Positions 946-60,068 of a stretch of DNA of 64,000 nucleotides are shown piece after piece. The notes under the pieces were generated by a model that was given only the letters and a program-made list of their open reading frames with translations, searched no databases and was not told where the DNA came from. Location: the IMG/VR virus record IMGVR_UViG_3300026521_000088, positions 32,551 to 96,550 of that record; one strand, given 5' to 3'. Source of the stretch: a virus (Duplodnaviria; Heunggongvirae; Uroviricota; Caudoviricetes). The position numbers and the translations under genes were made by a program. Positions within the stretch are counted from its first letter, which is position 1; the number at the start of each line of letters is the position of its first letter.

Positions 946-1503
946 TTATTTTAGTTCATCTCTTATATAACTCATAGTTAAACAGGGACAATCTTTAGTA
1001 ACTTTAGGTAACTCATTATGCCCAATAATATCTGTATTTTTTAAATTATACATATCTTTTAAAGTATTTAATGTAGTGATTAATGTTTTATGTTGTGCAT
1101 CTGTCATATTATCATAGTCAGCAATATATTTACCTTTAATAATACCTTTAATACCACCAGCATATACTACACCTATAGTACTTCTATTGTAACCTTTAGC
1201 ATGAGCTCCAGCATTATCTACCCATCTACCTTTCTCTAAAGTACCATCTCTTTTTATAAGGTAGTGGTAACCTATACCAGACCAACCTCTATCTAAATGC
1301 CAACCATCTACCATTTTAGCATCTACACTAGTATTTGAACTAGAAGAAGCAGTACAATGTACTACTATTTTCTTAATATCTCTTTTATCAGTTTTATATA
1401 GTTTTGTAGGGTTTAATACTTTACCCACAGAACTAAATTTTTTATTTCTTTTCATTGCTACTCTTTGTATTAAATTCTTTATTATAAAGTTTATTTTGTT
1501 CAT
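946..1503 (-). CDS. N-acetylmuramoyl-L-alanine amidase (Amidase_2 / PGRP / T7-lysozyme-like endolysin)
   Basis: Translated ORF shows Amidase_2 hallmarks: ...KKIVVHCTASS..., ...AGAHAKGYNRSTIGVVYAGG..., ...GHNELPKVTKDCPC (zinc-ligand His/His/Cys pattern of T7 lysozyme family). Sits at the end of the membrane-protein/lysis cluster. Confidence 0.8.
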   Translation of the reverse strand: MNKINFIIKNLIQRVAMKRNKKFSSVGKVLNPTKLYKTDKRDIKKIVVHCTASSSSNTSVDAKMVDGWHLDRGWSGIGYHYLIKRDGTLEKGRWVDNAGAHAKGYNRSTIGVVYAGGIKGIIKGKYIADYDNMTDAQHKTLITTLNTLKDMYNLKNTDIIGHNELPKVTKDCPCLTMSYIRDELK

Positions 1504-8221: not shown

Positions 8222-10219
8222 TTATATAAGTTCTTCCAATTCTTTAGTGTATATAGTATGTTGTTCTGTACTATTTAATGCTCTATTATATACTCTTACA
8301 TTTTTAATATTACCTTTAAAAAAATCTGATGTATCACTACCATCATATTCTTGACCTAAACTAACTTTATCAATATCACTAAAATCAAAACTATAATCAT
8401 ATTCTAATATTTTATCATTATTAATTGTACATACTAGATTATCATCTATAGTTATACAAGCAAAATACCATTTATTATCAGTATATGTGTTATCTACAGT
8501 ACCAGAAGCATTTTCACCATCTAACACTAAAAATGTTTTATTGCTGTTAAAAGCTAATCTTATTTTATTATCTCCATCAGAATCATGACATGAAAAAACC
8601 TGATTACTATAATCATCGTCAGAGTCTGTTACATCTGTTTTAAACCAAAAAGTTATACTACAAGTATTTACATCTTTAAGTGAATTTGATAATTCATTTA
8701 TATTTATATAGCTAGATGTACCATTAAATAAAGCACTATTATTATCATATTCTATATCTGTATCTGTTCCATCATATTGCTTAACCCAGTGATCTTCACT
8801 AGATATAGCTAATTTATAATAAGCCATTAACCCATTATCTATTATAGGTTCTCTAGTTATCTTTTCATAATTATATATAGTTTTTATTTCTTCTTGTGTT
8901 AAAGCTCTATCATATACACGGACGTTTGAAATATTACCATTTAACTCATATCTAATATCACTACCATCATCACTATTATCAAAAGCTCCAAACAACTGTC
9001 TATAATAGTCAGTAGTTTCCCAGAAGTTAAAATCAGCACTACCTACTTCCTCAAGGTTAACATACAACTTATAGGTGTTATCATCCTTTTGAAGTACTGT
9101 ATAGTACCAAATATCTGTAGTAACAGTAGCATCGGTTGTGAATACAGTTGTATAACTATAGTCATCATGATGACCTTCTCTTCCTGCTAACTGCAATTTA
9201 TTCCCATCTGTAATATTTAGGTCAAGATTACTCCAACCAGCATCAGGTTGCGATATGTGCAATAGCCTAGTTTCTTTATCAAGTTCGCCATTAATTTTAA
9301 ACCAAAAACTTACACAAGTTTGTAGTCCTAGTGCTATATTATCTTCCACTAATTCTACTCTTGTGTTACTACCCTCACCACCAAAACTCCCAGCAATCCC
9401 CATTTCTGTCGCAGCATAAGTCAAGCCTCCATTTTCAGTACCATTATAGTTACCAGTCAAATCTTCAGCAGTACCATCTAATGGATAGTGAGCTACTAAA
9501 CCACTTATAGCTTGTGTTGGGTCACAATCATACTTTAATTGAGTGTATAACATTTCTACTTCTTGTGGGTTTAATGCTCTGTTGTAGATTTCTACTTGAT
9601 CAATCAAACCATTAAAATAATACTCCTCACTCCGTTTACCTATAGTTACAGTTGTATCATCACCTGAACCTATATAATCATCATCTAAATTACCTTTTTG
9701 TTCGATATTACTAATATATAATATTGCAGAGTTTGTACCATCAAAAATAGCAACTACTGAATATAATGTATCATTTTCTAAAGTAGTATCTGATTGAACA
9801 TTTTTACCATCTTCATTTTTAAAAGTTACTATTAATTTACTATCATAAAGTCCAATAGTATGTTCAGAATTACCAATATCTATAAGTAATTGAAACTTAC
9901 TTATATCTACTGAACTAAAAACAAAAGATACAGAATAAGTAGATAGTGATGATATTTCAATCTCAGTATCAATCTTGCTTGTGTCACCATTAAAACTACC
10001 AGCATATCCAAATTTACCATTTTCATAAGTAATATCAGTAGCTACACCATCATAATTACCTAACAAATCAGTAGCATCACCATCTAATAAGTATTTAGCT
10101 ATCAAACTACCATCATTAAATGGATCTGTACTGCTTACTAAATTCTTACTAGGCATACTTGGACAAGTTCCAGTAGATATTCCATTACAAGTTATACTTC
10201 TACAAGCTTCTAAACTCAT
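8222..10219 (-). CDS. tail fibre / receptor-binding protein with three LamG (concanavalin A-like lectin) repeats
   Basis: Three repeats each ending in a LamG-type motif: ...IDQVEIYNRALNPQEVEMLY, ...ISNVRVYDRALTQEEIKTIYNYE, ...IKNVRVYNRALNSTEQHTIYT; each preceded by GNYDG/GNYNG... glycine-rich strands. Confidence 0.6.
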   Translation of the reverse strand: MSLEACRSITCNGISTGTCPSMPSKNLVSSTDPFNDGSLIAKYLLDGDATDLLGNYDGVATDITYENGKFGYAGSFNGDTSKIDTEIEISSLSTYSVSFVFSSVDISKFQLLIDIGNSEHTIGLYDSKLIVTFKNEDGKNVQSDTTLENDTLYSVVAIFDGTNSAILYISNIEQKGNLDDDYIGSGDDTTVTIGKRSEEYYFNGLIDQVEIYNRALNPQEVEMLYTQLKYDCDPTQAISGLVAHYPLDGTAEDLTGNYNGTENGGLTYAATEMGIAGSFGGEGSNTRVELVEDNIALGLQTCVSFWFKINGELDKETRLLHISQPDAGWSNLDLNITDGNKLQLAGREGHHDDYSYTTVFTTDATVTTDIWYYTVLQKDDNTYKLYVNLEEVGSADFNFWETTDYYRQLFGAFDNSDDGSDIRYELNGNISNVRVYDRALTQEEIKTIYNYEKITREPIIDNGLMAYYKLAISSEDHWVKQYDGTDTDIEYDNNSALFNGTSSYININELSNSLKDVNTCSITFWFKTDVTDSDDDYSNQVFSCHDSDGDNKIRLAFNSNKTFLVLDGENASGTVDNTYTDNKWYFACITIDDNLVCTINNDKILEYDYSFDFSDIDKVSLGQEYDGSDTSDFFKGNIKNVRVYNRALNSTEQHTIYTKELEELI

Positions 10220-11497: not shown

Positions 11498-14488
11498 TTA
11501 CTCACTATAACTATCATAAGCTGTAGACTCTGTATCATCATCTATAATACCCCAGATATACTCATTCATAGGACTATTTCTTTTAGCTTTTTTAACTGCT
11601 TCAGCATTTTCAAATTCTTTAGCAGGATATATAATATCTATCATATTTATTTGAGAAATTAAATCTAATCCATCATCATGTTTAGAACCTATACTTGTAT
11701 ATGATGTATACTTAATCTCTTCCATAAGTTCTCTCATATCTGGAGTATCTTTTAAAGCTTCATTAAACCATATCTTTCTATTTTGAAATAATGGTAACAT
11801 TTGTCTAAATCTCCAATGTTTATTACCACCTTCAAGTCTACTCCTAATACCTTCAGAACCTATCTTAGCTCCTTTTTGTCTAGCAAAACTAAAGAATGTA
11901 TTTCTATCTACCATCATTTGTTTTAAAGAGTATATATGAATATTTTGTTGTCCATCTACTTCAACACCTACATCTACCCATCTAGCATTACCAAATACAC
12001 TTTCAACCATTTTAAAAGTTGTTCTATATTGTTCTTCTAACTCCATTTTCTTTAATGTTAAATCTACTAAAAATATATCACCACTACTAGCTACTGCCCA
12101 TAATGCTGCACCACTAAAATCACTACCTTTACTACCTGTACTTGTATAATCTGTAGTTAAATACCAATTGTATTGACTAGCTCTAGCTTTTATTTTAGCT
12201 GTGTCTATAAATTGTATTAAAGACTCTGGTACTAACCTATCTTCTTCATTACTAATTCTTAGCATTAATTCTTGATTAAATTCCCTTATAGAATTAGTCC
12301 CTAAAGCATCTTCATATCTTTCTTTAACTCTTTCGTAAGAATGCATAGGTTCCCAAGCTCCTACAAACTCTTTCTTAGTTATATTGTCATCTATCTTTTC
12401 ACACATAGGTATACAAACTGGTGTCCAAGTACCAGATTCTAATGCTTGGTATACTGGATCATTTTTATTAAATGGTGTATTAATTGCTATAATTTTACCT
12501 TTCTTACCACCTAAAGCATTTTCAGCATCAGCATACATCATAGACTTAAGTTTTTTCATAATAATTTTAGAATTAGCATCAGCCTCATTCTTAATAATAT
12601 CATCAAAAATAATACAGTTTTTAGATATACCAAATAGTGTACTATAAGCATGGTTTTCCCCAATTACTTTTTCAATATCCCTATTATTACACTGTATAGG
12701 TATTAAGTCTAGGTCTTTTGTTTCCTCTACACTTTTTACTTGTCTCCATAACATACCATTCTCTATATGTACTTGTTTAAACTTTACCTTTGTACTGGCC
12801 GATACATCAATATTCAGTATTTGCTTTACATTTTCTACCAATCTTAGTTCCCATTGATGGTTAATATTGTGTTCTTTGTTAGTTGAATTAAATACTTGTA
12901 CACCACTTCTTTTTGTATTGCGTATATAAGTAGGTAGTCCTAAACGACTAGAAATGACTTGTAGTTGTTTTAATACATTTAAATTAACACTATTTATCCT
13001 TACCTGTTGACTAACTTTCTTATTATCTATATATCCATCAGCAGCTATGTAACCAAGTAATAAATTTTTTTGCTTATTTAAGGTTATACGCATTACCCAA
13101 TCTGGCATATTTTTAATACTATTTCCACTTTTTTGGGACTTCAACCAATTTGACATGTCTGTATCGGATGTAACAATATTATAACAACCTGAACCAAACC
13201 TCTGGATACTATACTTTTTACCAAGACTATCTAGTATACTACATACTTTTTTACCAATAGTTTTCTCTTGGGTATTTGCTATAGTGTAAATTATATTACT
13301 ATTAGATATAGTCCCATCACCTAACCACAAACCATAAAGCCACCACCAATCATCGTTATCAAACTCAGTAAACTGAATCTTTTCTAACTTACTTATTTTC
13401 CTAGTTTTAAGAATCCTACCTTTAGAATCTCTAGCTATGATTTCATCATAGTATTTAACACATTCTACCAATGGAGGGTTGATTTCAGTATAATCAATCA
13501 TTGACCCAATCCAATGTCTATTTGTTAACTTGCTAGCTTCTTCCCAGCAAGCTTCATATTCAATATAATTTTTTACTAATTTTTTACTAGTTCTACACCA
13601 TACTTGGTCATTGGTACACTTTTTAGCCCAGTATTTGTGGTCTTTGCTAACAAATTCTGATTCTGTCAAACCTCTTACTTTAATTTCATACCCATTTTCA
13701 ATAAACCCTTCAGCCTTGATGGGGTGTTCTTCTATAGGATATGTACCGTACTCTGTTGTAACAATAGTCCCTCTTACATGACATTGAGGTCTTTCTGTTT
13801 TATATCTAATACCCCTTACAGAACCTCCAGCAGCACCTTTAACTTTATACATAAATGACCTAGATTTTATAGACTTATTTTCACCAGGTAGTTGCTTTCT
13901 TAAGAACTCACATTCTTCATCTGTAAATCTCATTTTTTCAAAATATTCTTTACAAAATAATGAATCCTCACATATATCTCTAATAGTATTAGCTTGAACT
14001 TTAGCTCCAGCTTGTTGTGAATCACCAAACCCTACTACAAACATAACATCACCAAAATTAGGCATCTTACCTTTTATTGCCAAGTATATAGGTAAAAATG
14101 CTGTAATAACTGTACTTTTAGCTAAACCTCTAGAACACATAATAGCTATTTTTCTATTATTAATTCTAATACTATCTTGAATTTCTTTTGAATATGGGTA
14201 TTGATGTCTTTTAATATTACCAAATACTAAGTCTACTAAAAAGTAATGCATCAAAGAGTTTTCCACTTCAAAGTCTTGTCCTTGTACTAATCGCATTAAA
14301 CTAAAAAATTCTATAGCATCTCTGCTAGGTAAATACCCACCAAATTTTAAATCCATATTATTTAGTGCTTCATCAATATTAAATTTATATTTTTTATTAG
14401 GTACTAACTGCACATCAGGCAAATCTTCTATATCGTTAGCGTTTTCTAAATACTCTTCCCACTCTTTACTTATTTTTTTATTACTCAC
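11498..14488 (-). CDS. terL: terminase large subunit interrupted by an in-frame intein with LAGLIDADG homing endonuclease
   Basis: N-extein has terminase Walker A-like MCSRGLAKST; the sequence resumes as CIIFDDIIKNE (Walker B hhhhDD) after a 389-aa insert beginning with Cys (RPQ|CHVRGTIV...) and ending ...ISKN|C; insert carries two LAGLIDADG motifs (WLYGLWLGDGTIS and LLLGYIAADGYID). C-terminal part is nuclease-domain sized. Confidence 0.85.
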   Translation of the reverse strand: MSNKKISKEWEEYLENANDIEDLPDVQLVPNKKYKFNIDEALNNMDLKFGGYLPSRDAIEFFSLMRLVQGQDFEVENSLMHYFLVDLVFGNIKRHQYPYSKEIQDSIRINNRKIAIMCSRGLAKSTVITAFLPIYLAIKGKMPNFGDVMFVVGFGDSQQAGAKVQANTIRDICEDSLFCKEYFEKMRFTDEECEFLRKQLPGENKSIKSRSFMYKVKGAAGGSVRGIRYKTERPQCHVRGTIVTTEYGTYPIEEHPIKAEGFIENGYEIKVRGLTESEFVSKDHKYWAKKCTNDQVWCRTSKKLVKNYIEYEACWEEASKLTNRHWIGSMIDYTEINPPLVECVKYYDEIIARDSKGRILKTRKISKLEKIQFTEFDNDDWWWLYGLWLGDGTISNSNIIYTIANTQEKTIGKKVCSILDSLGKKYSIQRFGSGCYNIVTSDTDMSNWLKSQKSGNSIKNMPDWVMRITLNKQKNLLLGYIAADGYIDNKKVSQQVRINSVNLNVLKQLQVISSRLGLPTYIRNTKRSGVQVFNSTNKEHNINHQWELRLVENVKQILNIDVSASTKVKFKQVHIENGMLWRQVKSVEETKDLDLIPIQCNNRDIEKVIGENHAYSTLFGISKNCIIFDDIIKNEADANSKIIMKKLKSMMYADAENALGGKKGKIIAINTPFNKNDPVYQALESGTWTPVCIPMCEKIDDNITKKEFVGAWEPMHSYERVKERYEDALGTNSIREFNQELMLRISNEEDRLVPESLIQFIDTAKIKARASQYNWYLTTDYTSTGSKGSDFSGAALWAVASSGDIFLVDLTLKKMELEEQYRTTFKMVESVFGNARWVDVGVEVDGQQNIHIYSLKQMMVDRNTFFSFARQKGAKIGSEGIRSRLEGGNKHWRFRQMLPLFQNRKIWFNEALKDTPDMRELMEEIKYTSYTSIGSKHDDGLDLISQINMIDIIYPAKEFENAEAVKKAKRNSPMNEYIWGIIDDDTESTAYDSYSE
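12617..13783 (-). mobile_element. intein (aa 236-624 of TerL) with double-motif LAGLIDADG homing endonuclease domain
   Basis: Boundaries inferred from Cys1 (C236) and C-extein Cys (C625) flanking ...SKN; LAGLIDADG blocks present; insertion immediately upstream of terminase Walker B. Confidence 0.7.
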
Positions 14489-15200
14489 ACTCTACCTCTA
14501 TTGTCTCTAAATTAACTCCTAGTTTTTGTACAGTTTCTATAGTTTCTCCTGATTCTAACTGTTTCATTTTAGCATCAGTAGATAATTTTAACTGTTCCAT
14601 AAGTTGTTGTTGAATACTTTTTGACTCATCATCCAACCCTATAGTAATATCCAACTTATTATTTTCTTCTGGTTTAAGTAGTTCTAACAATGTCTTAGAT
14701 GCTAATTGTTGTACTGTACCACTTGTAGGATTTCCATTAGCATCAGTACCAGTAGCTAATCTAGCTTGTACTTGTATTTGTTGATAAAACACTGGAGCAT
14801 ATAAAGCTTTATAATCCAGTAATTTTTGAGCTTCTAATTTAACAACTATAGGTCTAGAATTATAGTAACTTACATGAGAGCTATTCCATCTACCTTCTTG
14901 TACTAATTTATTATACTTATCAGGAAATGTAAGTTCCCAAGCTTCATTATTACTCATATTTTGTTTTAATTGTACATACTTAACAGCATCTACATAATCT
15001 TTAAAACTAACCCTTACTTCTCTTAATATAGGTAAATTATTAAGAATACTCTCTTCAGCATATTCTTGAAGTAGTCCAGTATCTTTCTCTATATTATCTA
15101 TTAGAGAAAGTACTTCATCTGTAACTTTATAGTTACTACCTTTTGGTAGTAATTTTTCTATCTTCTCTCTAGTTATATTATATTTTGTATTTGTATCCAT
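14481..15200 (-). CDS. putative terminase small subunit (positional call)
   Basis: 239-aa ORF immediately upstream of and overlapping terL by 8 nt; coiled-coil C-terminus; no diagnostic motif. Confidence 0.35.
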   Translation of the reverse strand: MDTNTKYNITREKIEKLLPKGSNYKVTDEVLSLIDNIEKDTGLLQEYAEESILNNLPILREVRVSFKDYVDAVKYVQLKQNMSNNEAWELTFPDKYNKLVQEGRWNSSHVSYYNSRPIVVKLEAQKLLDYKALYAPVFYQQIQVQARLATGTDANGNPTSGTVQQLASKTLLELLKPEENNKLDITIGLDDESKSIQQQLMEQLKLSTDAKMKQLESGETIETVQKLGVNLETIEVECE

Positions 15201-25933: not shown

Positions 25934-26019
25934 GCTGCTATGGTGGAAAGGTAGACACTGAAGGCTTAAAACCTTCTGACTGAAAAGTCGTCCCAGTTCG
26001 AATCTGGGTAGCAGTACCA
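25934..26019 (+). tRNA. tRNA-Leu (anticodon TAA), type II with long variable arm, CCA encoded
   Basis: Acceptor GCTGCTA/TAGCAGT, anticodon arm GAAGG-CTTAAAA-CCTTC, variable stem-loop, T arm CCCAG-TTCGAAT-CTGGG, then ACCA. Confidence 0.8.
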
Positions 26020-26021
26020 AA

Positions 26022-26095
26022 TCTCCAATAGCTTGAAGGTCAAGCAAATGACTGTTAATCATTAGTTGTAGGTTCGATTCCTACTTGGAGAGCCA
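26022..26095 (+). tRNA. tRNA-Asn (anticodon GTT), CCA encoded
   Basis: Acceptor TCTCCAA/TTGGAGA, D arm GCTT-GAAGGTC-AAGC, anticodon arm AATGA-CTGTTAA-TCATT, T arm GTAGG-TTCGATT-CCTAC, then GCCA. Confidence 0.8.
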
Positions 26096-31519: not shown

Positions 31520-32488
31520 ATGGAAATTTTTAAGAAAAATGAATATGAGCAAGTTATAGGTGTAAATACAAAATTCATTATTGGTAGTATAGTAAGTATT
31601 ATTGTAATTGTTGCAGCACTATTAAGTTTTTATACTATAAATAGTGGGTATGTAGGTGTACTATCTACAATGGGTAAATACCATAAAAATGAAATAAACC
31701 CTGGACTTAACTTTAAGATACCTTATATGCAAAGTGTAACAGTGTTTAATACTAAAGCGCATGTGGTGAATTATAAAGGTTCAAAAGATCTACCTGATAC
31801 TGAAGACATTATCAATAAACCTTATATTGTGGTTCTTGATAAGAACAATCAAAATATTGTGATTGAGTTATCAGTACAGTATCAACCAGTTGCATCTGAA
31901 GCATCTGAGATTCTTACACAATATGGTAAAACATACTTTTATAAAGCTATTAACCCTATCGTAAGAGAGGTTGTAAGAGATGTAATTGGAAAATATGAAG
32001 CAGAAACTATTGCTTTAAATAGAACAGCTATAGCTACAAAACTTAAAGATACACTTATCAATAGATATAAAAATAATCATCAATTCTCTATCTTAGAAGT
32101 ATCTCTAAGAAACATTAGATTACCTAAACTTATTAAAGATAAGATTAATCAAGTACAAGTAGCTGCACAAGAAGAGCAAAGGTTAGCTAGAGTTGCTAAA
32201 CAAGCTCAAAGACATCAAGAGATTAAGACTATTGAAGCTAATACAAGAATGATTGAAATTACTACTAAAGCTAAAGCTCAAGCAGAAAAGAAAAAGATTG
32301 AAGCAGATGCTAAAGCTTATCAAATTCTAACAGAAGCTAATGCTAAATCAAAAGCTAACGAAGAGATTGCTAAATCTATAACACCAACATTGATTCAATA
32401 TAATCAAATTAACAAATGGTCTGGTATATATCCATCTACATATATGGGTAGTGGTATGAATAATGATGTAATTTTAAATATGAAATAA
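31520..32488 (+). CDS. SPFH/band-7 (stomatin/prohibitin/HflKC-like) membrane protein
   Basis: N-terminal TM, then SGYVGVLSTMGKY...PGLNFKIPYMQSVTVFNTKAH (canonical SPFH start) and a long coiled-coil QEEQRLARVAKQAQRHQEIKTIEA... tail. Confidence 0.75.
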   Translation: MEIFKKNEYEQVIGVNTKFIIGSIVSIIVIVAALLSFYTINSGYVGVLSTMGKYHKNEINPGLNFKIPYMQSVTVFNTKAHVVNYKGSKDLPDTEDIINKPYIVVLDKNNQNIVIELSVQYQPVASEASEILTQYGKTYFYKAINPIVREVVRDVIGKYEAETIALNRTAIATKLKDTLINRYKNNHQFSILEVSLRNIRLPKLIKDKINQVQVAAQEEQRLARVAKQAQRHQEIKTIEANTRMIEITTKAKAQAEKKKIEADAKAYQILTEANAKSKANEEIAKSITPTLIQYNQINKWSGIYPSTYMGSGMNNDVILNMK

Positions 32489-39201: not shown

Positions 39202-39803
39202 AAACAATTAAAATATTAAGTAAAGAGCCGCTTGCAAAACCAAAGTTTCTTAAAACAGAACTTGTAACTTACCAAAAAGATAATGAAAAACCAAGACAAT
39301 GGGAAGTTTTACAAGGATTTGATACAGTACACATTCTCATTAAAAATACTGATACAAACAAGTTCTTGTTAGTCAAGCAAAACAGAATACCTGTAGCTGT
39401 CAAAAATACTAATCAAGGTATTTGTATAGAATGTTGTGCAGGGATTATTGATAAATACCAACATTCAAAATCATCTTTATATCAAGCTAAATTAGTAGCT
39501 AGAGATGAGATACTTGAAGAATTAGGTTATCATAAAGAAAATTTAAAGGATATTGAATTAGTAGACACATTACTAAGTTCAGTAGGCACTGTTGGTTCTA
39601 AACAATACTTGTTCTATTGTGAAGTTAACGATTCTGAATATACAGGACAACATTTAGAACCAGATGAAGAAATTGAAGTTATTGAATATACAAGTAATGA
39701 TTTAATGGATTTAATATTTAAAGAGTATAATACAGACTCGGTGACTAAATATTTATGTTTAAATCATATTGGAGAAATATATAACATAAAGGATAATTTA
39801 TGA
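39186..39803 (+). CDS. Nudix hydrolase (ADP-ribose pyrophosphatase-like; NatV C-terminal-domain equivalent)
   Basis: Nudix box-like ...LVARDEILEELGYH...; overlaps the NMNAT gene by 16 nt and the NadV gene by 4 nt. Confidence 0.6.
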   Translation: MEVMVKTIKILSKEPLAKPKFLKTELVTYQKDNEKPRQWEVLQGFDTVHILIKNTDTNKFLLVKQNRIPVAVKNTNQGICIECCAGIIDKYQHSKSSLYQAKLVARDEILEELGYHKENLKDIELVDTLLSSVGTVGSKQYLFYCEVNDSEYTGQHLEPDEEIEVIEYTSNDLMDLIFKEYNTDSVTKYLCLNHIGEIYNIKDNL

Positions 39804-41239
39804 GTAAACTATTAGAATCAACATTAATAACAGGAGATAGTTATAAATATGGGCATCCATTTCTATTAAGAGATGATATAGCTTATCAATATAACTATAT
39901 GGAAGCAAGAAAAGGCGATGATATAATATTTGTAGGTATGCAATATTATATTAAAAAGTTTCTAACAAAAGTACCATCAAAGAAACAAATTAAAAAAGTT
40001 AAAAAGATGGCATTAAAGCATGGAATTTATTTTGATGAAAAGATGTGGAAATACATCAATAAATTAGGATATTATCCAATTAGAATTAAAGCAATACCAG
40101 AAGGAACAAAAGTACCATCAGGTGTACCATTAGTTACTTTTGAAAATACAGATCCAGAATGTGTAGGATTAGTAGGTTTTCTTGAAACTCTGTTTATGAA
40201 AGTATGGATGCCAACATCGGTTGCTACGCAAAGCTATGAAGTTAAACAGATGTTATTAAAGTATGGTTCACCTGAATGGGCTGAATATGCTTATCACAAT
40301 TTTGGTTCTAGAAGCACAACATCATTAGAACACGATATGATTGCTGGATACGCACACCTAACACAATTTAAAGGAACTGACAGCTTTTCTTCACTATTCT
40401 TTTGCGAAAAATACTATAATCAAGGGAAAGAACCAGCAGGATATTCAGTATTAGCAACAGAGCACTCTGTTACTACAATGAATGGTATAGAAAACGAAGA
40501 AGAGTTTGTATATAAAACATTATTAAATAATCAAAATAGTCAAATTATCTCATTTGTTGGAGATTCTTATGATATTTATAAATTTACAGATTTTGTAACA
40601 AATCCAAACGGTAGAATAAGAAAATTACTAAACAAAAGAAAAAACCAAAAACTTGTAATTAGACCAGATAGTGGAGAACCAATTAAAGTACTTAAAGGTG
40701 TTATTGATATAATGAAAAACAATGATTGTTTTAATTCTGGAATAGAAGGTAAACTATTGTCGCCTAAATACGGAATTCTTTGGGGTGATGGTATAACACA
40801 AAAAATAATTGAACACATTCTACAATACTTCACTAATGAATCTTATAGACAATTCATGATAAATAGTAGTACAGACATACTAGCAACTAAAATTAAAAAT
40901 TTACAATTACTAGCAGCAGAAAACTTTGTATTTGGTTCTGGGACAGACTTAGTTAATTCAAAAGATAGAGATACTTATGGATTTGCTATTAAATGTTCAT
41001 CAGTTACACTTAAAGATGGTACAGAGCTAGATGTATTCAAAAATCCTATAACTGCACCTACTAAAAAATCGAAAAGAGGTAGAGTAGAAACAGCATTTAA
41101 CACAGCAAAGAAAACATATAGAACAACTAAAGGTGGGTATAAAGATATAGAAACGAAAGCGTTACAGTTAATATTTGAAGATGGTAAGTTATATAATGAA
41201 ACTTCCCTAGAAAACATTAGAAGTAACAGTTTAAAATAA
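39800..41239 (+). CDS. nadV: nicotinamide phosphoribosyltransferase (NAMPT/NadV)
   Basis: N-terminal TGDSYKYGH (NAMPT DSYK motif), 479 aa, typical NAMPT length and composition. Confidence 0.75.
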   Translation: MSKLLESTLITGDSYKYGHPFLLRDDIAYQYNYMEARKGDDIIFVGMQYYIKKFLTKVPSKKQIKKVKKMALKHGIYFDEKMWKYINKLGYYPIRIKAIPEGTKVPSGVPLVTFENTDPECVGLVGFLETLFMKVWMPTSVATQSYEVKQMLLKYGSPEWAEYAYHNFGSRSTTSLEHDMIAGYAHLTQFKGTDSFSSLFFCEKYYNQGKEPAGYSVLATEHSVTTMNGIENEEEFVYKTLLNNQNSQIISFVGDSYDIYKFTDFVTNPNGRIRKLLNKRKNQKLVIRPDSGEPIKVLKGVIDIMKNNDCFNSGIEGKLLSPKYGILWGDGITQKIIEHILQYFTNESYRQFMINSSTDILATKIKNLQLLAAENFVFGSGTDLVNSKDRDTYGFAIKCSSVTLKDGTELDVFKNPITAPTKKSKRGRVETAFNTAKKTYRTTKGGYKDIETKALQLIFEDGKLYNETSLENIRSNSLK

Positions 41240-50914: not shown

Positions 50915-51166
50915 ATGTATATACAAGACCCAAAAACGAAAGAACCACCAAAATTAAATGAAAAATATGTACAAAAGGCTGAAAAAGCTTTGGAATCAGT
51001 ACATTACCCTATTATTATAAATATTGGAAGACACCTTATGAACTCCTATACACAAGACTATATTGAAAATGAAATTAGGAAAACAGGTTATTATCAAGTA
51101 ACTAGAAGACTTAGTAATTGTGGTAAATATGAAGTACTTGAGGTTATGTATAACTATGAAACCTAG
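50915..51166 (+). CDS. hypothetical small protein
   Basis: 83 aa; overlaps the helicase gene start. Confidence 0.4.
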   Translation: MYIQDPKTKEPPKLNEKYVQKAEKALESVHYPIIINIGRHLMNSYTQDYIENEIRKTGYYQVTRRLSNCGKYEVLEVMYNYET

Positions 51167-52970
51167 ACCAGTACAACTACGATATGTAGACAATATTAAA
51201 GTTGATACGAGTAATCTACTTATTGCTCCTATGGGGTTAGGTAAGTCATTTATACTTAAACTTATAGTTGATAAATATTTTAATAATAAGAAAATACTAG
51301 TATTAACTAATAGAAGACAATTAACATTACAGTTATCATCATACTTTAAAGATCATACCTTTATCCTATCTGGTAAAGATTATGATGAAAATTCACATAT
51401 TCATCTAGCAACATTTCAAACATTAAATAGAAGAGATATAGATTTAAGTACTTATGATTTAGTATGTGTTGATGAGATACATGAAGTTTTTAATGTAAAA
51501 TTAATGAAAACTATCAAAGGCTTAAACTGTACTAAAGTGTATTTAACAGGAACTCCTATTAACTCTAAAGGTAAGTTTTTAGGTAAATTTGATAATGTTA
51601 TGGAATATATAAATATTGAAAAAATGATAGAATTAGGTTATTTAGCTAAAACTAGATTTATTTCAAAAGCTAATATTTTAGCTGATGAAGCAGATATTGG
51701 TATTCAAAACGGAGATTATAAATCAGAAGGTATTGAAAGAGTTATAGATAAACAAGCTATTATTCAATGGGTTGTAAATGATAATTTAGAGTACAAATGG
51801 GGTACTGAACATAAAGCTATTATGTATGTTAATTCTATTGCTACAGCTATTAAAGTTATGGAAGCAATGAATGAAGATACTATTAGAGTAGTACATTCTA
51901 AGTTATCTAGTAAAGAATTAGAGAGTACTTTAAAATGGTTTCATGAAACTGATGTAGGTATTCTTATTAATGTAAGAATGTTAACTACAGGAACTGATAT
52001 ACCTACTGTTGATACTATTATTAACTTATCTCCTACAAAGATTATATCCTTATACTTACAATCTATTTGGAGAGGTTCTAGAGTAAATGGTGATAAAGAA
52101 ACTATAGTATATGATTATACTGGTAATTTATTGAAAATTTCACCATATTATACAGATTGGTATAAGAAAAGTAAACCAAGCTGTAGAGATAAATGTAAGG
52201 AATTTCCAGAAAATAGTATTGCTAGACATATGTGTTTAGAAACTTGTAAGATACCAGAACATCAATTTATTATATGTAATGGTAAACCTTCTTATACTTT
52301 TGAACAAGATCCATATAAATCTGAATATATTGTAAAAGGTACACCTTGTAATAAAGGGTACCCTTTTCATGCTATGGAGTACAAAACAACAGTTCCACCT
52401 AATAGTATAGGTAAACTATGGGTATGGTCAAAATGTCCTTGTGGTTGTATTACTAGATATACCTTAGAGACTATGACACAACCTAGTAAAACTATTGAAT
52501 TATATAGTAATGTAGTAGATTCTAATAATATTATATTTATATATAACAAAAAAGAAAGAAAAGGATTAGTTATAGCTGAAAGTATTAGAAAGAAAAACTA
52601 TAGCTATAAGACAGTTTATAGTCAAGAAGAGTTATATGAGTATGCTTTAAAGTTATTTAAAGGTAAAAAATTTACAATAGGTAGTAATATACCATTACCT
52701 AAATTAAAGAATATAACTGTTATACCTAAACTAGAAGAATATGTAGATTTAATAGATTGGACAAAAGACAACCCTAAAGTAATGAGAAAGATTATTACAT
52801 ATAAATTAAACAATATGGTTAAGGAATATGGTATGAAAAAAGGTTATGTTTATTGGTTTAAAAAATTAGTAAAAGAGAGTAACGAACGATATGTTATGAA
52901 AGGTTTAGAGAATGTATATGATAGATATTCTCTAATGGCTTTAAAAAGAAAATTAGAACAAATGCAATAA
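51120..52970 (+). CDS. superfamily 2 (DEAD/DExH-like) helicase with C-terminal Cys-rich region
   Basis: Motif I LIAPMGLGKSF, motif II VCVDEIHE, motif III LTGTP, motif VI QSIWRGSR; Cys cluster CRDKCKEF...CLETCKIPEH. Confidence 0.7.
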   Translation: MVNMKYLRLCITMKPRPVQLRYVDNIKVDTSNLLIAPMGLGKSFILKLIVDKYFNNKKILVLTNRRQLTLQLSSYFKDHTFILSGKDYDENSHIHLATFQTLNRRDIDLSTYDLVCVDEIHEVFNVKLMKTIKGLNCTKVYLTGTPINSKGKFLGKFDNVMEYINIEKMIELGYLAKTRFISKANILADEADIGIQNGDYKSEGIERVIDKQAIIQWVVNDNLEYKWGTEHKAIMYVNSIATAIKVMEAMNEDTIRVVHSKLSSKELESTLKWFHETDVGILINVRMLTTGTDIPTVDTIINLSPTKIISLYLQSIWRGSRVNGDKETIVYDYTGNLLKISPYYTDWYKKSKPSCRDKCKEFPENSIARHMCLETCKIPEHQFIICNGKPSYTFEQDPYKSEYIVKGTPCNKGYPFHAMEYKTTVPPNSIGKLWVWSKCPCGCITRYTLETMTQPSKTIELYSNVVDSNNIIFIYNKKERKGLVIAESIRKKNYSYKTVYSQEELYEYALKLFKGKKFTIGSNIPLPKLKNITVIPKLEEYVDLIDWTKDNPKVMRKIITYKLNNMVKEYGMKKGYVYWFKKLVKESNERYVMKGLENVYDRYSLMALKRKLEQMQ

Positions 52971-52981
52971 AAAGGGTTTTT

Positions 52982-53698
52982 ATGACTATAAATAATTATG
53001 ATATGAGTTCTACAGGCTTAAATATTGAGTTAGATGTATTTTATGATGAAGATAAGGCTAGAGATAATTACACTAATTACTTAGTACATTTAAAAGATGA
53101 TGTATATGAGTATCTACCATATAATGATAGAAGTAAATGGAAGTCAAATAGTTGTGAATCTTATATAAAAATAGATACCCAAAAAAATAGACTTGGTACT
53201 CTTTTAAGATTACTTGTGGAAAAATTTGATTATACCGATTTTAAAAGTTATACTAAAGATAAAGCTATAGAAGAAATTTTTGATAACTTTCAATTTCCAG
53301 ATGATATGTTATATTTAGAATATTTATTAGACTTATATGATATACAATATAAAAAACTATATATAAGTAAAAGAATAGTTGGATATAGCCAAGGTGAATG
53401 TAATATAGTTATCTATAGACCTAAAATATTTAGACAACAAACAGTACTAAAAGAAGATGAATTAAAAGATGAGGATTTAGTTAATTCTGATTGGTTATGT
53501 AATCTTTTATATGATGCACCATTATATTTAACTATAGTTATAAATGGTGTTGAATATGAGTCAAATATATATCATAATAGATATATAGATTTTAACAAAA
53601 ATACTTTTATACAAGAGTGTCTATATCATTTTAAAGAAGTGGATAAAGATATACTACAACAAGAGTTAGAACGAATTGTACCAGATACAATTTATTAA
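52982..53698 (+). CDS. hypothetical protein
   Basis: 238-aa ORF. Confidence 0.5.
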   Translation: MTINNYDMSSTGLNIELDVFYDEDKARDNYTNYLVHLKDDVYEYLPYNDRSKWKSNSCESYIKIDTQKNRLGTLLRLLVEKFDYTDFKSYTKDKAIEEIFDNFQFPDDMLYLEYLLDLYDIQYKKLYISKRIVGYSQGECNIVIYRPKIFRQQTVLKEDELKDEDLVNSDWLCNLLYDAPLYLTIVINGVEYESNIYHNRYIDFNKNTFIQECLYHFKEVDKDILQQELERIVPDTIY

Positions 53699-53708
53699 AG
53701 GATAAATA

Positions 53709-54233
53709 ATGAAATATGAAGAATTAGTAGAAGAGTGTAAAAAAGATATTATAAAAGAGTTAGAAGAATTATTAAAATTACCAAAAGATTATAAAATTAA
53801 ATATAATATGTTAATAAAATCAGAGGTAAGATATACAGATTGTATTACAGATATACATAGTATTAATAAAGCTCTAGAACAACTTAAAGAAATAGAATTT
53901 GATAAAGATAAATACTTAAAAGTAACTACAGAAATAGATACTGATATTGATGCTTATGCAGTAGATAACGAAATTATTATTGAACAAACTGATGTATTTA
54001 TTAAATCTACTGCTATTAAACCTATTAGTAAAAATAAACTAGAAGAGTTACTAGCAGGTACATACTCATTTAATCAATTATTTAAAGAGTATTTAACAGC
54101 TAGAATTATGGAAGAAAAAGGTGTTAGATTACATACTTATGAAATTGACTGTAAATTACTAGAACTATATAAAAATGGTACTCTTGATTATAATCAATTA
54201 ATAGAGAGTTTAGTATCTGTATGTAAGGTATAA
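53709..54233 (+). CDS. hypothetical protein
   Basis: 174-aa ORF. Confidence 0.5.
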   Translation: MKYEELVEECKKDIIKELEELLKLPKDYKIKYNMLIKSEVRYTDCITDIHSINKALEQLKEIEFDKDKYLKVTTEIDTDIDAYAVDNEIIIEQTDVFIKSTAIKPISKNKLEELLAGTYSFNQLFKEYLTARIMEEKGVRLHTYEIDCKLLELYKNGTLDYNQLIESLVSVCKV

Positions 54234-54236
54234 ATA

Positions 54237-55739
54237 ATGAGGTATACTACTGAACAACAAAATGTAATTGAAGCTAGTTTAGTAGAACCTTTAGTATTAG
54301 TAGATAGTGTAGCTGGTTCAGGTAAGTCAAGTGTTTTAGAAGGTGTTGCTGAAGCTCATAATAATGAAAAATGTACCTATATTGTATTTAACAAAGAACA
54401 AGAGATTGAAGCTAAACGGAGATTTAATAAGAAAGTTAGAGTACACACTACTCATGCTTTAGCTTATAATTATGTTATAAGGCAAGGTTTAGAGTTAGAT
54501 AGTAATAACAAACTTATTGAATCTACTGATATGTTTGGAATATCTACAACAAAACCTAGAAAATTAGGTTCATTTAATGTGAACACTATAGTAGAAAATA
54601 TTAAAGCTAGAGAAAAAGAGAAGGTAGTATATTGGTTTGAAGTATTTTGTAAAAGTCAGTATTTAACTGTAGATGAGTTTTGTAAAGTAGAAGAAAAAGC
54701 TAATAAAAGAAAAGATTTATTAAATAAATATTTTAACTTAATGGTTAAAAAACAAATAGATGTTACTTTTGAGTTTAATCTAAAATATTTACAAATACTA
54801 AGTGTAGCTGGTGTTATTGATTTTGGTATTAATGTGCTATTAGTAGATGAATTACAAGATTTTTCAATTCCTATGTTAGAAGTATTAAAACATATTAATG
54901 TTAAACATATTGTAGGTGTAGGTGATAAAAATCAACAATTATACTCATTTGCTGGTGCAGTTAATGGATTCAGCTATTTAGCTGACCAAAATCCTAAGTA
55001 TATGAAATTAACACAATCATTTAGAGTTCCTACAAAAGTAGCTAAGAAAATTGAGATTTTTGGTAGATTATATTTAGACCCTAACTTTGAGTTTAAAGGT
55101 ACTGATAATCAACCTAATATACTAACTGAAGCATATATTACTAGTACTAATTCAGCATTAATTGAACAGATTGAATTATTTCATTTACAAAGAAAACCTT
55201 ATAGACTTACTAGAAGTGTTGCATCTATATTTGAAGCAGTTAAAGTTATTATGTACCTTAATAAGAAAGGTGTATATAACAAAAAATATAGTTTTTTAAA
55301 TAGAGGTATTGATGAATATTTTTCAGGTAAAACTAAAGCTAAAAGTCTTATAGGTTATATTAAAACAGAATATTCATACCATATAGAGATTCAAGCAGCA
55401 ATTAGTATTGTACTAAAAATGGGTAATATCAGACTTAAGAAACTTATGGAAGAAGCTAAATTAAATGAGAAGAAAATAGCTTATAAAACTGCTCGTACTA
55501 CATTAGCAACATCACATACATTAAAAGGTAAAACTTTTAGTAAAGTTTTCTTAGATTCTGGTTTATTACCTAAAGATGAGATATTAGATACTTCTATAAA
55601 TTTTAGAACTATTGAAGAACAAGAAGCATTAAATAATTTATATGTTGCAGCTACTAGATGTAATCAAGAAAGTAAGACTACTCTAATAGATCAAGCTATA
55701 AAATATAAACTGAAGGAGAAACATGCTAAGTCAAATTAA
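54237..55739 (+). CDS. superfamily 1 helicase (UvrD/RecD/Dda-like)
   Basis: Walker A VDSVAGSGKSSVL, Walker B/motif II LLVDELQDFS, C-terminal ...VAATRC motif VI-like. Confidence 0.65.
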   Translation: MRYTTEQQNVIEASLVEPLVLVDSVAGSGKSSVLEGVAEAHNNEKCTYIVFNKEQEIEAKRRFNKKVRVHTTHALAYNYVIRQGLELDSNNKLIESTDMFGISTTKPRKLGSFNVNTIVENIKAREKEKVVYWFEVFCKSQYLTVDEFCKVEEKANKRKDLLNKYFNLMVKKQIDVTFEFNLKYLQILSVAGVIDFGINVLLVDELQDFSIPMLEVLKHINVKHIVGVGDKNQQLYSFAGAVNGFSYLADQNPKYMKLTQSFRVPTKVAKKIEIFGRLYLDPNFEFKGTDNQPNILTEAYITSTNSALIEQIELFHLQRKPYRLTRSVASIFEAVKVIMYLNKKGVYNKKYSFLNRGIDEYFSGKTKAKSLIGYIKTEYSYHIEIQAAISIVLKMGNIRLKKLMEEAKLNEKKIAYKTARTTLATSHTLKGKTFSKVFLDSGLLPKDEILDTSINFRTIEEQEALNNLYVAATRCNQESKTTLIDQAIKYKLKEKHAKSN

Positions 55740-55929
55740 ATTATGGTATTGGTGGAATTTTATAATAAATAAAAATATATACGATATTTATCAATATTGG
55801 GAAACATATCCTAATCTCACAATACAACAACAAATAAACCAAGAACAAATTATACTGTATTTAGCAGATGGTTATAGTGTTTTTGATATACCAGCTTCTA
55901 AAATAAAGGAGGCTGGAATTTTAATATAA
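55723..55929 (+). CDS. small hypothetical protein
   Basis: 68 aa, Trp/Tyr-rich. Confidence 0.35.
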   Translation: MLSQIKLWYWWNFIINKNIYDIYQYWETYPNLTIQQQINQEQIILYLADGYSVFDIPASKIKEAGILI

Positions 55930-55939
55930 GGATAGATAT

Positions 55940-56935
55940 ATGGTAAATTTATTTAACAATATACCTGTATACACTACTCTAAAAGAAACAGAAGATACAA
56001 TATTTATAAATAATAATGAGGTTATACCAGAATGGTTAGCTTTAAGATATATAGATATTTCTTTAAAATCTTATAGTGGTAAAAGAGAGCTTAATAGAAT
56101 TAGTACAACAGAATTTAGTAAAAGTGATAAACAAATATTACTAGAGCAACAAAGAATACAGAATGGTTATAAAATAACTGTAGATGTAGAAGATATTGTA
56201 TCTAGTGTATTAGGTACTATTGTACATGAAGGTATATTACAAACAGAACCAGAAAGACAAGAAAAAAGTATTGGAAAATGGGTTATATCAGGACAAGCAG
56301 ATAGGATTGATAATAATACTATATATGATTTAAAACATACTTCAATATACTCTGGTAAAAATCTTTTAAGAGAATTGGATTTATACCCTAAATACCATGA
56401 GATGTCTTTAGAAGATTTACAAGTTAAATGTCCTAGTATATTCAAGTATCTTAGTCAATTAGCTATTTATAATTGGTTATATAATTTAGATAATGATATA
56501 GGGTATATTACATTTATTTTTAATAATTGGACTTTTAAAGATAAACAAGATATAAAAAATAAAAATATGCAAATAGAGTTTAAATTACCTAGTATAGATA
56601 AGATTGAACAATATTTAATTAATAGATTGAATAGATTAAAATCTTATCAAGATACAGGATATTTGCCTGATTGTGATGATAATACTCTAGGCATCTCTAC
56701 AACTAGAACTTATAAAATAGTTAAATATGGTAAAACTAGAGCAGTAAATGGTAGTGGTGGTTCTTTTAATACTTTAAATGAAGCTTCTATAGCACAATTA
56801 AAATTTCCTAATACAGAGATAAAAGAGACAGTAATTACAACAGAACCTACTTTATGTTTAAATTGGTGTAAATTTAATAAAGAAGGTATATGTGAACAAG
56901 GTCAAAAAATAAAGGAAGCATATGAAACAATATAG
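55940..56935 (+). CDS. PD-(D/E)xK nuclease, Cas4/RecB-family-like exonuclease
   Basis: GQADRIDNNTIYDLKHTS (D ... [DE]-L-K nuclease core) plus C-terminal Cys cluster CLNWCKFNKEGIC reminiscent of Cas4 Fe-S ligands. Confidence 0.5.
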   Translation: MVNLFNNIPVYTTLKETEDTIFINNNEVIPEWLALRYIDISLKSYSGKRELNRISTTEFSKSDKQILLEQQRIQNGYKITVDVEDIVSSVLGTIVHEGILQTEPERQEKSIGKWVISGQADRIDNNTIYDLKHTSIYSGKNLLRELDLYPKYHEMSLEDLQVKCPSIFKYLSQLAIYNWLYNLDNDIGYITFIFNNWTFKDKQDIKNKNMQIEFKLPSIDKIEQYLINRLNRLKSYQDTGYLPDCDDNTLGISTTRTYKIVKYGKTRAVNGSGGSFNTLNEASIAQLKFPNTEIKETVITTEPTLCLNWCKFNKEGICEQGQKIKEAYETI

Positions 56936-57296
56936 AATGTCTGGGAACTTTAAAATGTTTATAAATGTACTGTTTAATATATTGACAGTATATTACTGTA
57001 TAATAAATCCTACAGATACATTATATACATCTATTTATATTGTTATAACTGCTATTATTGTAATAACTATGTGGCTTACATTTTTCTTAGATGATACTTA
57101 TTTAATAAAAACAGCAAAACAGTATAAAGATTATAATAATACACATTTAGCTATATATTATTTACAAATAGCTATTACAGGTATTATTCTTATAATTTAC
57201 GATTACCAATTGTTAGGTGCTTTATATACTTCTATTATAATACCTTTCTCTTTTATACAGACATATAAGGATATGTATTATGAGATTGATTACTAA
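56922..57296 (+). CDS. membrane protein (3-4 TM)
   Basis: Hydrophobic helices throughout the 124-aa ORF. Confidence 0.45.
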   Translation: MKQYRMSGNFKMFINVLFNILTVYYCIINPTDTLYTSIYIVITAIIVITMWLTFFLDDTYLIKTAKQYKDYNNTHLAIYYLQIAITGIILIIYDYQLLGALYTSIIIPFSFIQTYKDMYYEIDY

Positions 57297-60039: not shown

Positions 60040-60068
60040 ATAAAGAATAATAAATAAACGGAGGAAAT

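Follow-up and report, generated by a model that had tools for sequence, protein, structure and literature searches.

Why should a phage gene for the large terminase subunit (TerL), whose product must bind nucleotide to package DNA, carry 389 extra codons between its two nucleotide-binding motifs? Terminases are the phage proteins that most often host inteins. The question arises at one locus in a 64,000-nucleotide (nt) stretch of tailed-phage DNA (positions 32,551 to 96,550 of the IMG/VR record IMGVR_UViG_3300026521_000088; hereafter the window), where a first-pass annotation, made from the letters and open reading frames (ORFs), had proposed a LAGLIDADG intein just before the Walker B motif. 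Here we show that the extra segment is almost certainly an intein with a LAGLIDADG endonuclease, describe its architecture, insertion site and relatives, and weigh whether a copy ending in Lys-Asn (KN) in place of the usual His-Asn (HN) can splice and spread.

A large terminase gene split between Walker A and Walker B

The TerL precursor ORF occupies positions 11498–14488 of the window, with the 996 residues reported for it, and lies on the minus strand, which the first-pass annotation had left unstated; all features of the gene given below are on that strand. It starts with GTG, continues as an unbroken reading frame across 996 codons to a stop codon at 11498–11500, has a GAGG-like ribosome-binding site about 9 nt 5′ of the start codon and overlaps the preceding gene (14481–15200) by 8 nt. 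The intein (precursor residues 236–624, 389 residues; 12617–13783), which consists of a Hint (Hedgehog/intein) splicing domain and a nested LAGLIDADG homing endonuclease, divides the precursor into two exteins. The N-extein (residues 1–235; 13784–14488) runs from the N-terminal region into the ATPase domain, of which it contains the first half, and its last residues are YKTERPQ, and the C-extein (residues 625–996 and the stop codon; 11498–12616) comprises the remaining ATPase domain and the nuclease domain. As had been noted, the flanks carry the Walker A motif GLAKST, within the P-loop SRGLAKST (residues 119–126; 14111–14134; placed by alignment and model), and Walker B, in the strand CIIFDD (residues 625–630; 12599–12616). 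The gene is best annotated as a terminase precursor with an intein, and neither as a 996-residue fusion protein nor as two genes.

Removal of the insert leaves 607 residues, the length foreseen from the sequence, and restores a continuous terminase. The precursor matched the terminase large subunit family PHROG 38 in two stretches (E = 1.4e-52), and the joined flanks matched it in a single stretch (residues 82–577, E = 6.8e-59). A tblastn search with the joined flanks found matches in 482 cultured-phage records, in 438 of which at least 80% of the query was covered at one place. The top matches were N4-like phages of Vibrio, Alteromonas, Pseudomonas and Escherichia, with about 33% identity; these N4-like (Schitoviridae) large terminases align with the joined exteins over 92–95% of the length, and the best-matching cultured N4-like records listed align in one piece, with no insert at the site occupied in the window. 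Within the 64-kb window TerL is present in one copy, and neither a second terminase nor a second copy of the intein was found there, which speaks for the gene being needed.

A search of Protein Data Bank (PDB) sequences with a 34-sequence terminase profile retrieved no terminase, and the Walker assignments were therefore drawn from an AlphaFold model and Foldseek comparisons. The joined-extein model, built from 34 intein-free terminases (predicted local distance difference test score (pLDDT) 77.5), contains a P-loop formed by a strand (113–118), a loop and a helix (124–139), and Walker A residues R120, K124, S125 and T126 are invariant among the 34 aligned sequences. The model matched the full-length terminases of PhiV-1, D6E, T4 (gp17) and HK97 (E = 3.5e-17 to 8e-12) and, more weakly, the P74-26 ATPase domain (E = 4e-07); terminase nuclease domains were matched as well, and over the solved terminases together the values ran from E = 3.5e-17 to 5e-11. 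As modelled, the joined flanks are a large terminase with a P-loop ATPase, including both Walker motifs, and a C-terminal RNase H-like nuclease.

Architecture and class of the intein

The insert begins with CHVRGT and ends with FGISKN, and the next residue is Cys625 (CIIFDD), so that the limits first proposed, from an initial Cys to ISKN before a Cys, hold on the sequence. In an alignment of 22 family members, block A (CHVRGTIVTTEYG; 13745–13783) provides Cys1, the first nucleophile, and C1, H2, G5, T6, T10 and G13 are invariant. Block B (VSKDHKYW, intein residues 45–52; 13628–13651) contains Ser46-Lys-Asp-His49, a TxxH motif with Ser for Thr; V45, H49 and Y51 do not vary, and S, T or N is found at position 46. 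Blocks F and G (intein residues 359–389, DLIPIQC...HAYSTLFGISKN; 12617–12709) contain the block F His378, the penultimate Lys388 and the terminal Asn389. In this part of the protein no variation is seen at W346, I363, Y380, G385 and N389 and next to none at S387, and position 388 is K or H.

The homing endonuclease domain spans approximately intein residues 140–330 (12794–13366), as delimited by Pfam, Foldseek and the region deleted in three relatives (P0008, P0027 and P0031). Both LAGLIDADG blocks seen in the first pass are present: motif 1 (WWWLYGLWLGDGT, intein residues 146–158; 13310–13348) includes the catalytic Asp156, and motif 2 (LLLGYIAADGYI, intein residues 241–252; 13028–13063) the catalytic Asp249. 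Pfam detected LAGLIDADG_3 (E = 6e-13) and Hom_end (E = 1e-5) in the insert.

A PDB sequence search with the intein yielded just E = 0.6, to PI-SceI across motif 2 alone, and for this reason a fold search was used. An AlphaFold model of the insert built on the 22 family members (pLDDT 91.3, predicted template modelling (TM) score 0.86) matched PI-SceI best (E = 8e-15) and also the TliVMA and PI-PfuI inteins (to E = 8.5e-10; to E = 3e-08 with PhoVMA included), and its endonuclease part matched the stand-alone enzyme I-DmoI (E = 4e-08). The modelled fold is thus that of a Hint domain combined with a two-motif, monomeric LAGLIDADG endonuclease of αββαββα fold. PI-SceI, the yeast VMA1 intein, and the archaeal VMA and PI-PfuI inteins have the same nested layout (TM scores 0.5–0.6) and share with the window intein the class 1 chemistry of Cys1, a C-terminal Asn and Cys+1; they differ in sequence (10–13% identity), in their host protein and in their His-Asn ends.

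This fold, together with the invariant Cys1, His49, Asn389 and Cys+1, bears out the identification as an intein. The structural match and the one-piece alignments of the joined flanks go far past anything expected from chance. By its catalytic residues (Cys1, the block B motif, the C-terminal Asn and Cys+1) the insert belongs to class 1. Class 3 was considered because Cys365 is common in the family alignment, and was rejected: the WCT triplet (Trp B:12, Cys F:4 and Thr G:5), which in class 3 goes with an internal Cys as first nucleophile, is absent (position B:12 is Tyr51 and G:5 is Ser387), Cys1 is invariant, and Cys365 is replaced in P0004, P0031 and P0036.

The insertion site and a non-native +1 Cys

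Comparison with intein-free TerL homologues, which the first-pass annotation had named beforehand as the way to refute it, upheld the insertion. The closest intein-free relatives (P0006, P0007, P0009, P0010 and P0015; 603–614 residues) are 68–74% identical to the joined flanks, and each aligns with them in one high-scoring segment pair that crosses the junction without a gap. Since these relatives lack the segment and align without a gap, it is an insertion and no native terminase domain. In the joined-extein model, strand 236–240 (CIIFD) precedes Asp240-Asp241, both invariant in the 34 terminases. The residue at the insertion point is thus the one that opens the Walker B strand, in agreement with the position just before Walker B first given for it.

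Relatives with the intein at this site were counted among the best 120 proteins of a large metagenomic protein collection, of which 28, besides the window's, carry a homologous intein there. The +1 residue, encoded in the window at 12614–12616, is Cys in 29 of 29 intein-bearing proteins, the window's included. Among 87 empty-site relatives the equivalent residue is Ile in 55, Met in 14, Ala in 7, Leu in 6, Cys in 3 and Val in 2. Because 84 of the 87 empty alleles have Ile, Met, Ala, Leu or Val at this position, the +1 Cys is brought by the intein and is foreign to the terminase; the spliced terminase would hold a Cys where a hydrophobic residue is usual. The family therefore offers clear cases in which an intein forces a foreign +1 Cys upon the protein that hosts it.

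The three empty alleles with Cys (P0070, P0071 and P0102) share their flanks, RYRTERPA/CF[IL]FDDI (the slash marks the junction here and below), with the intein-bearing P0003 and P0027, and look like the footprint of precise intein loss. At the DNA level, an intein-free allele (L001; junction sequence GAAAGACCACAT followed by ATGATAATATTTGATGAT) shares 62 of 72 nt with the joined junction of the window, so that plausible homing targets exist in nature.

Lysine in place of the penultimate histidine

The C-terminal dipeptide KN, singled out in the first-pass annotation as a departure from HN, is real but less unusual than was implied. Among the 29 clade members it is the majority form (23 of 29, with HN in 6 of 29), and phage inteins conserve the penultimate His poorly, with Lys, Gly and Ser all on record there (PMC5050341). 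Two of the HN members, P0036 and P0039, are placed one residue further downstream on the strand. The same report and work cited there describe the penultimate His as dispensable in some inteins, with a block F His able to stand in. In the window intein His378, the block F His, is a candidate for this role; in two KN relatives, P0004 and P0031, however, the position is Ser.

Mini-inteins with KN retained and the endonuclease cleanly deleted occupy the same site in P0008 (172 residues), P0027 (126 residues) and P0031 (126 residues), and P0002 has an Asp-to-Ala replacement in LAGLIDADG motif 2. With full-length, mini and empty sites all present among the relatives, the homing life cycle is visible at this one locus.

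Four further observations concern the inteins of these relatives. P0004 is a mosaic, 81% identical to the window intein over the second half of the endonuclease (window 12794–13108) and 42–54% elsewhere, which suggests recombination between inteins. Close terminase relatives (P0021, P0027, P0084, P0102 and P0107) also carry a different intein in the Walker A P-loop, between Lys and Ser; it is about 361–367 residues long, starts with Ala (ALALD...) and ends VTHN/S. Another intein (Pfam PF14890) lies near the terminase C terminus, at about residue 547 of the joined exteins, in P0004, P0008, P0030 and P0073–P0078. Some terminases hold two or three inteins, for example P0021 (1368 residues) and P0030 (1415 residues).

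Purifying selection and recent transfer

At the 51–58% identity that separates the window intein from its nearest full-length relatives, synonymous sites are saturated, and the ratio of nonsynonymous to synonymous substitution rates (dN/dS) was therefore measured on three closer KN-type relatives with retrievable DNA. It was 0.10–0.13 for the whole intein and 0.06–0.10 for the endonuclease part, which indicates that the inteins of the KN-type clade are under purifying selection.

Two members of the clade, P0012 (L006, 501–3533) and P0014 (L007, 501–3569), have inteins that are 97% identical in both protein and DNA, in exteins with 68–69% protein identity and saturated or nearly saturated synonymous divergence. 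The high identity carries on past the junctions, for about 60 nt on the upstream side and 30 nt on the downstream side, and these flanking tracts may be co-conversion tracts. The reverse pattern is seen between P0014 and P0011, whose exteins are 94–96% identical and inteins 89%. Such decoupling of intein from extein is what recent homing between divergent terminase genes predicts, and it indicates, from the sequences compared, that homing of this kind has occurred within the clade. Relative to the window, intein identity (51–58%) exceeds extein identity (40–49%) in a distant clade and falls below it in a near one. The GC content of the window intein is 31.4% and that of the exteins 29.4%.

A wider family at adjacent positions of one strand

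A word-indexed protein search with the intein alone found one truncated relative only. A search of 1.84 billion representative proteins with a profile built from the 22 inteins gave 82 matches at E ≤ 1e-30 and 535 at E ≤ 1e-10. Among 51 new full-length representatives, the C-terminal dipeptide is HN in 48 and KN in 1, and 50 begin with Cys1; with HN in 48 of 51, His seems to be the ancestral state and Lys a derived one in the clade of the window.

The flanks of 59 of 77 full-length members follow a single pattern, RP-x, n hydrophobic residues, the intein, Cys, 3 − n hydrophobic residues (h) and DD, with registers assigned by anchoring on these flank motifs, relatives P0122–P0198 included, and not by a full structural alignment. 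The window's register, n = 0 (RP-x/C-h-h-h-DD; 12599–12616), has 25 members, n = 1 (RP-x-h/C-h-h-DD) has 4, n = 2 (RP-x-h-h/C-h-DD) has 12 and n = 3 (RP-x-h-h-h/C-DD) has 18, so that one intein family is found at four neighbouring positions along the Walker B strand. In a neighbour-joining tree, crude, based on identity distances and used descriptively, the window's register forms approximately one group (24 of 25 members, P0145 lying outside), and n = 2 and n = 3 are interleaved.

Members of the family (profile E of about 1e-45 to 1e-55) also sit in other host proteins, namely DnaB-like helicases (P0158 and P0162), DUF932 proteins (P0170 and P0179) and, at a different site, another terminase (P0172). 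The insertion in the DnaB-like helicase is again at the Walker B strand (RPDMVV/CDYHAL). Taken together, there is an even chance, in our estimate, that one lineage has spread through the terminases of uncultured phages carrying its own +1 Cys, has come to occupy four adjacent codons, has moved into DnaB-like helicases at their Walker B strand and has given rise to a Lys sub-clade that is mobile and under purifying selection. If so, Lys is a working substitute for His in Asn cyclization.

Proposed mechanism and alternative explanations

We favour, as highly probable, the reading in which the large terminase gene of an uncultured, distant N4-like phage has been interrupted by a class 1 intein that contains its own LAGLIDADG homing endonuclease. 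Direct support exists for the insertion and its fold, for conservation of the catalytic residues, for purifying selection acting in the clade and for recent movement between divergent terminases. Because the insert parts Walker A from the Walker B strand, the 996-residue precursor would be unable to act as a packaging ATPase. After translation, Cys1 would attack the Gln235–Cys236 peptide bond to form a thioester, the N-extein would be transferred onto Cys+1, cyclization of Asn389 would release the intein, and an S-to-N shift would join the exteins into the 607-residue terminase (...TERPQ-CIIFDD...), with a predicted splice-junction peptide of ...TERPQCIIFDDIIK. Lys388 takes the place of the penultimate His, and we speculate that Asn cyclization is aided by Lys388 itself, by the block F His378 or by both. 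Once excised, the intein would be a DNA endonuclease with site specificity: where intein-bearing and intein-free phages infect together, it would cleave the intein-free terminase genes at the matching position, and repair off the intein-bearing copy would copy the intein in. The +1 Cys codon would be transferred with it, since intein-free genes mostly lack Cys there. The conserved residues, the intact frame and the purifying selection in relatives make it very likely that the window copy still splices; that its endonuclease is active, and cleaves DNA, is probable.

Several points weigh against this account. The penultimate His is replaced by Lys388 in the window intein. The Asp of block F position 4 is not placeable, as the stretch from LIPIQC to HAY is variable and gapped in the alignment. 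A tblastn search with the intein against 50,697 cultured phage records gave nothing at E ≤ 1e-3; the family is undescribed in cultured phages, and with zero matches the window intein has no characterised close relative. The window intein is just 51–58% identical to its nearest full-length relatives, so that the evidence for selection and transfer was drawn from those relatives and not from the window copy. Finally, the 64-kb window is part of a contig of about 104 kb, and the TerL copy count covers the window alone.

The alternative that survives best is that splicing has been kept while the homing endonuclease is dead, leaving a fixed passenger that is inherited only vertically. Decay of the endonuclease belongs to the ordinary life cycle of inteins and is represented among the relatives by the 172- and 126-residue mini-inteins and by the motif 2 substitution of P0002, and the similar GC contents of intein and exteins fit long residence. 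This reading is nevertheless unlikely, as both motifs and both catalytic Asp residues are intact in the window copy, the endonuclease of the KN relatives has the low dN/dS given above, and a near-identical intein is found in divergent terminases.

It is also conceivable, with a still smaller probability, that splicing is conditional and works as a post-translational switch, for example a redox switch acting through Cys1 and Cys+1, that times late terminase activation. According to PMC5050341, conditional splicing has been proposed for inteins in ATPase motifs and the penultimate residue tunes the splicing rate; in the window intein both nucleophiles are Cys, and many clade relatives have Cys at −1 as well. 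Mobility and selfish persistence account for all of the data, however, and the +1 Cys is imposed by the intein and not by the terminase.

We regard it as very improbable that loss of the penultimate His has left a splicing-defective intein and hence a terminase pseudogene in a defective or mis-assembled genome. The His normally aids Asn cyclization, and some inteins that lack it splice poorly (PMC5050341 and work cited there). KN is nevertheless the majority form, found in 23 of 29 proteins from many independent samples, and KN inteins show a dN/dS of about 0.1 and recent transfer. The frame of the window copy is whole over 996 codons in the sole TerL of the window, and phages do contain inteins whose penultimate residue is Gly, Lys or Ser, the one with Gly splicing better than its own His mutant (PMC5050341).

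The view that the segment is a native accessory domain of a terminase lineage, never removed, draws on its recurrence at the same place in many relatives and was rejected on the intein-free relatives, which are closer, lack it entirely and align without a gap, and it has next to no probability given a Hint and LAGLIDADG fold with splice-junction residues, a position that splits the β-sheet core of the ATPase, and the presence of the same intein family in DnaB-like helicase and DUF932 proteins.

Relationship to known terminase inteins

Terminase inteins, insertion at Walker B and a non-His penultimate residue have all been published before, every element of the window intein is precedented, and homing inteins are familiar parasites of phages. 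All seven insertion sites described from mycobacteriophage terminases fall within the ATPase domain, and TerL1-e is the one in Walker B; splicing has been demonstrated for mycobacteriophage terminase inteins, and cleavage of intein-free alleles for some of them (PMC5050341). TerL1-e (for example, Gaia gp2; Kelley et al. 2016, PMC5050341) resembles the window intein in its location at the Walker B site of a terminase ATPase domain. The two differ in that TerL1-e is grouped with the class 3 inteins (PMC5050341), whereas the window intein is class 1, with Cys1 and no WCT triplet, and in that the TerL1-e host is an actinophage terminase_1 whereas the host protein here is an N4-like terminase.

Terminase inteins have also been reported in bacterial prophages (PMC4760082) and, as here, in metagenome-assembled genomes, namely those of uncultured crAss-like phages (Yutin et al. 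2021, PMC7886860), in whose Delta group TerL typically bears an intein. The crAss-like example is of the Hint-Hop type, and the window phage is N4-like by terminase and DNA polymerase similarity. Host jumps via shared nucleotide-binding sites have been proposed (bioRxiv 10.1101/2025.01.02.630785).

For inteins without the penultimate His (Chen, Benner and Perler 2000; Ssp DnaE; and the mycobacteriophage RDF intein, with Gly), splicing is reported to be retained, and a block F His can take over. The window intein differs from them in that the replacement is Lys and is held clade-wide (23 of 29), within a wider family in which 48 of 51 end in His-Asn. The family thereby provides a natural Lys-for-His penultimate series for studying how Asn cyclization is aided, and it brings together full-length, mini and empty sites at one locus and a set of related inteins whose insertion codons lie side by side in a single ATPase strand. 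Inteins that end in KN and splice with flanking Cys residues are possible tools for protein engineering. The current understanding of phage packaging is unchanged by the finding.

Genomic context

The GC content of the phage genome in the window is 26.7%. A replication module at 51120–62477 (plus strand) encodes a helicase, a family A DNA polymerase and a primase. The best cultured matches of the polymerase are Alteromonas AD45-type and N4-like phages, at 28–30% identity, and the window is therefore from a distant N4-like phage. A Pfam scan of 30 other window ORFs found no other homing endonuclease, and no T5orf172 domain was detected among the ORFs scanned; on contigs of the relatives, genes with a T5orf172 domain lie a few kilobases 5′ of the terminase gene (L002, 2639–3040; L005, 910–1338). 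Within the terminase gene, on the opposite strand, an 87-residue ORF (12384–12647, plus strand) spans the C-terminal splice junction; its product is low-complexity and hydrophobic, and it is most likely a chance ORF of AT-rich DNA.

Other genes in the window include an Amidase_2 endolysin (946–1503, minus strand) and an SPFH/Band 7 protein (31520–32488, plus strand). A 665-residue protein (8222–10219, minus strand) with three Laminin_G_3/concanavalin-like repeats is likely a virion or receptor-binding protein, judging from these domains. Two adjacent tRNA genes at 25934–26095 specify tRNA-Leu (anticodon TAA) and tRNA-Asn (GTT). A nicotinamide/nicotinate phosphoribosyltransferase gene (39800–41239, plus strand; Pfam NAPRTase, E = 8e-25, and NAMPT_N, E = 3e-12) points to phage-encoded NAD salvage.

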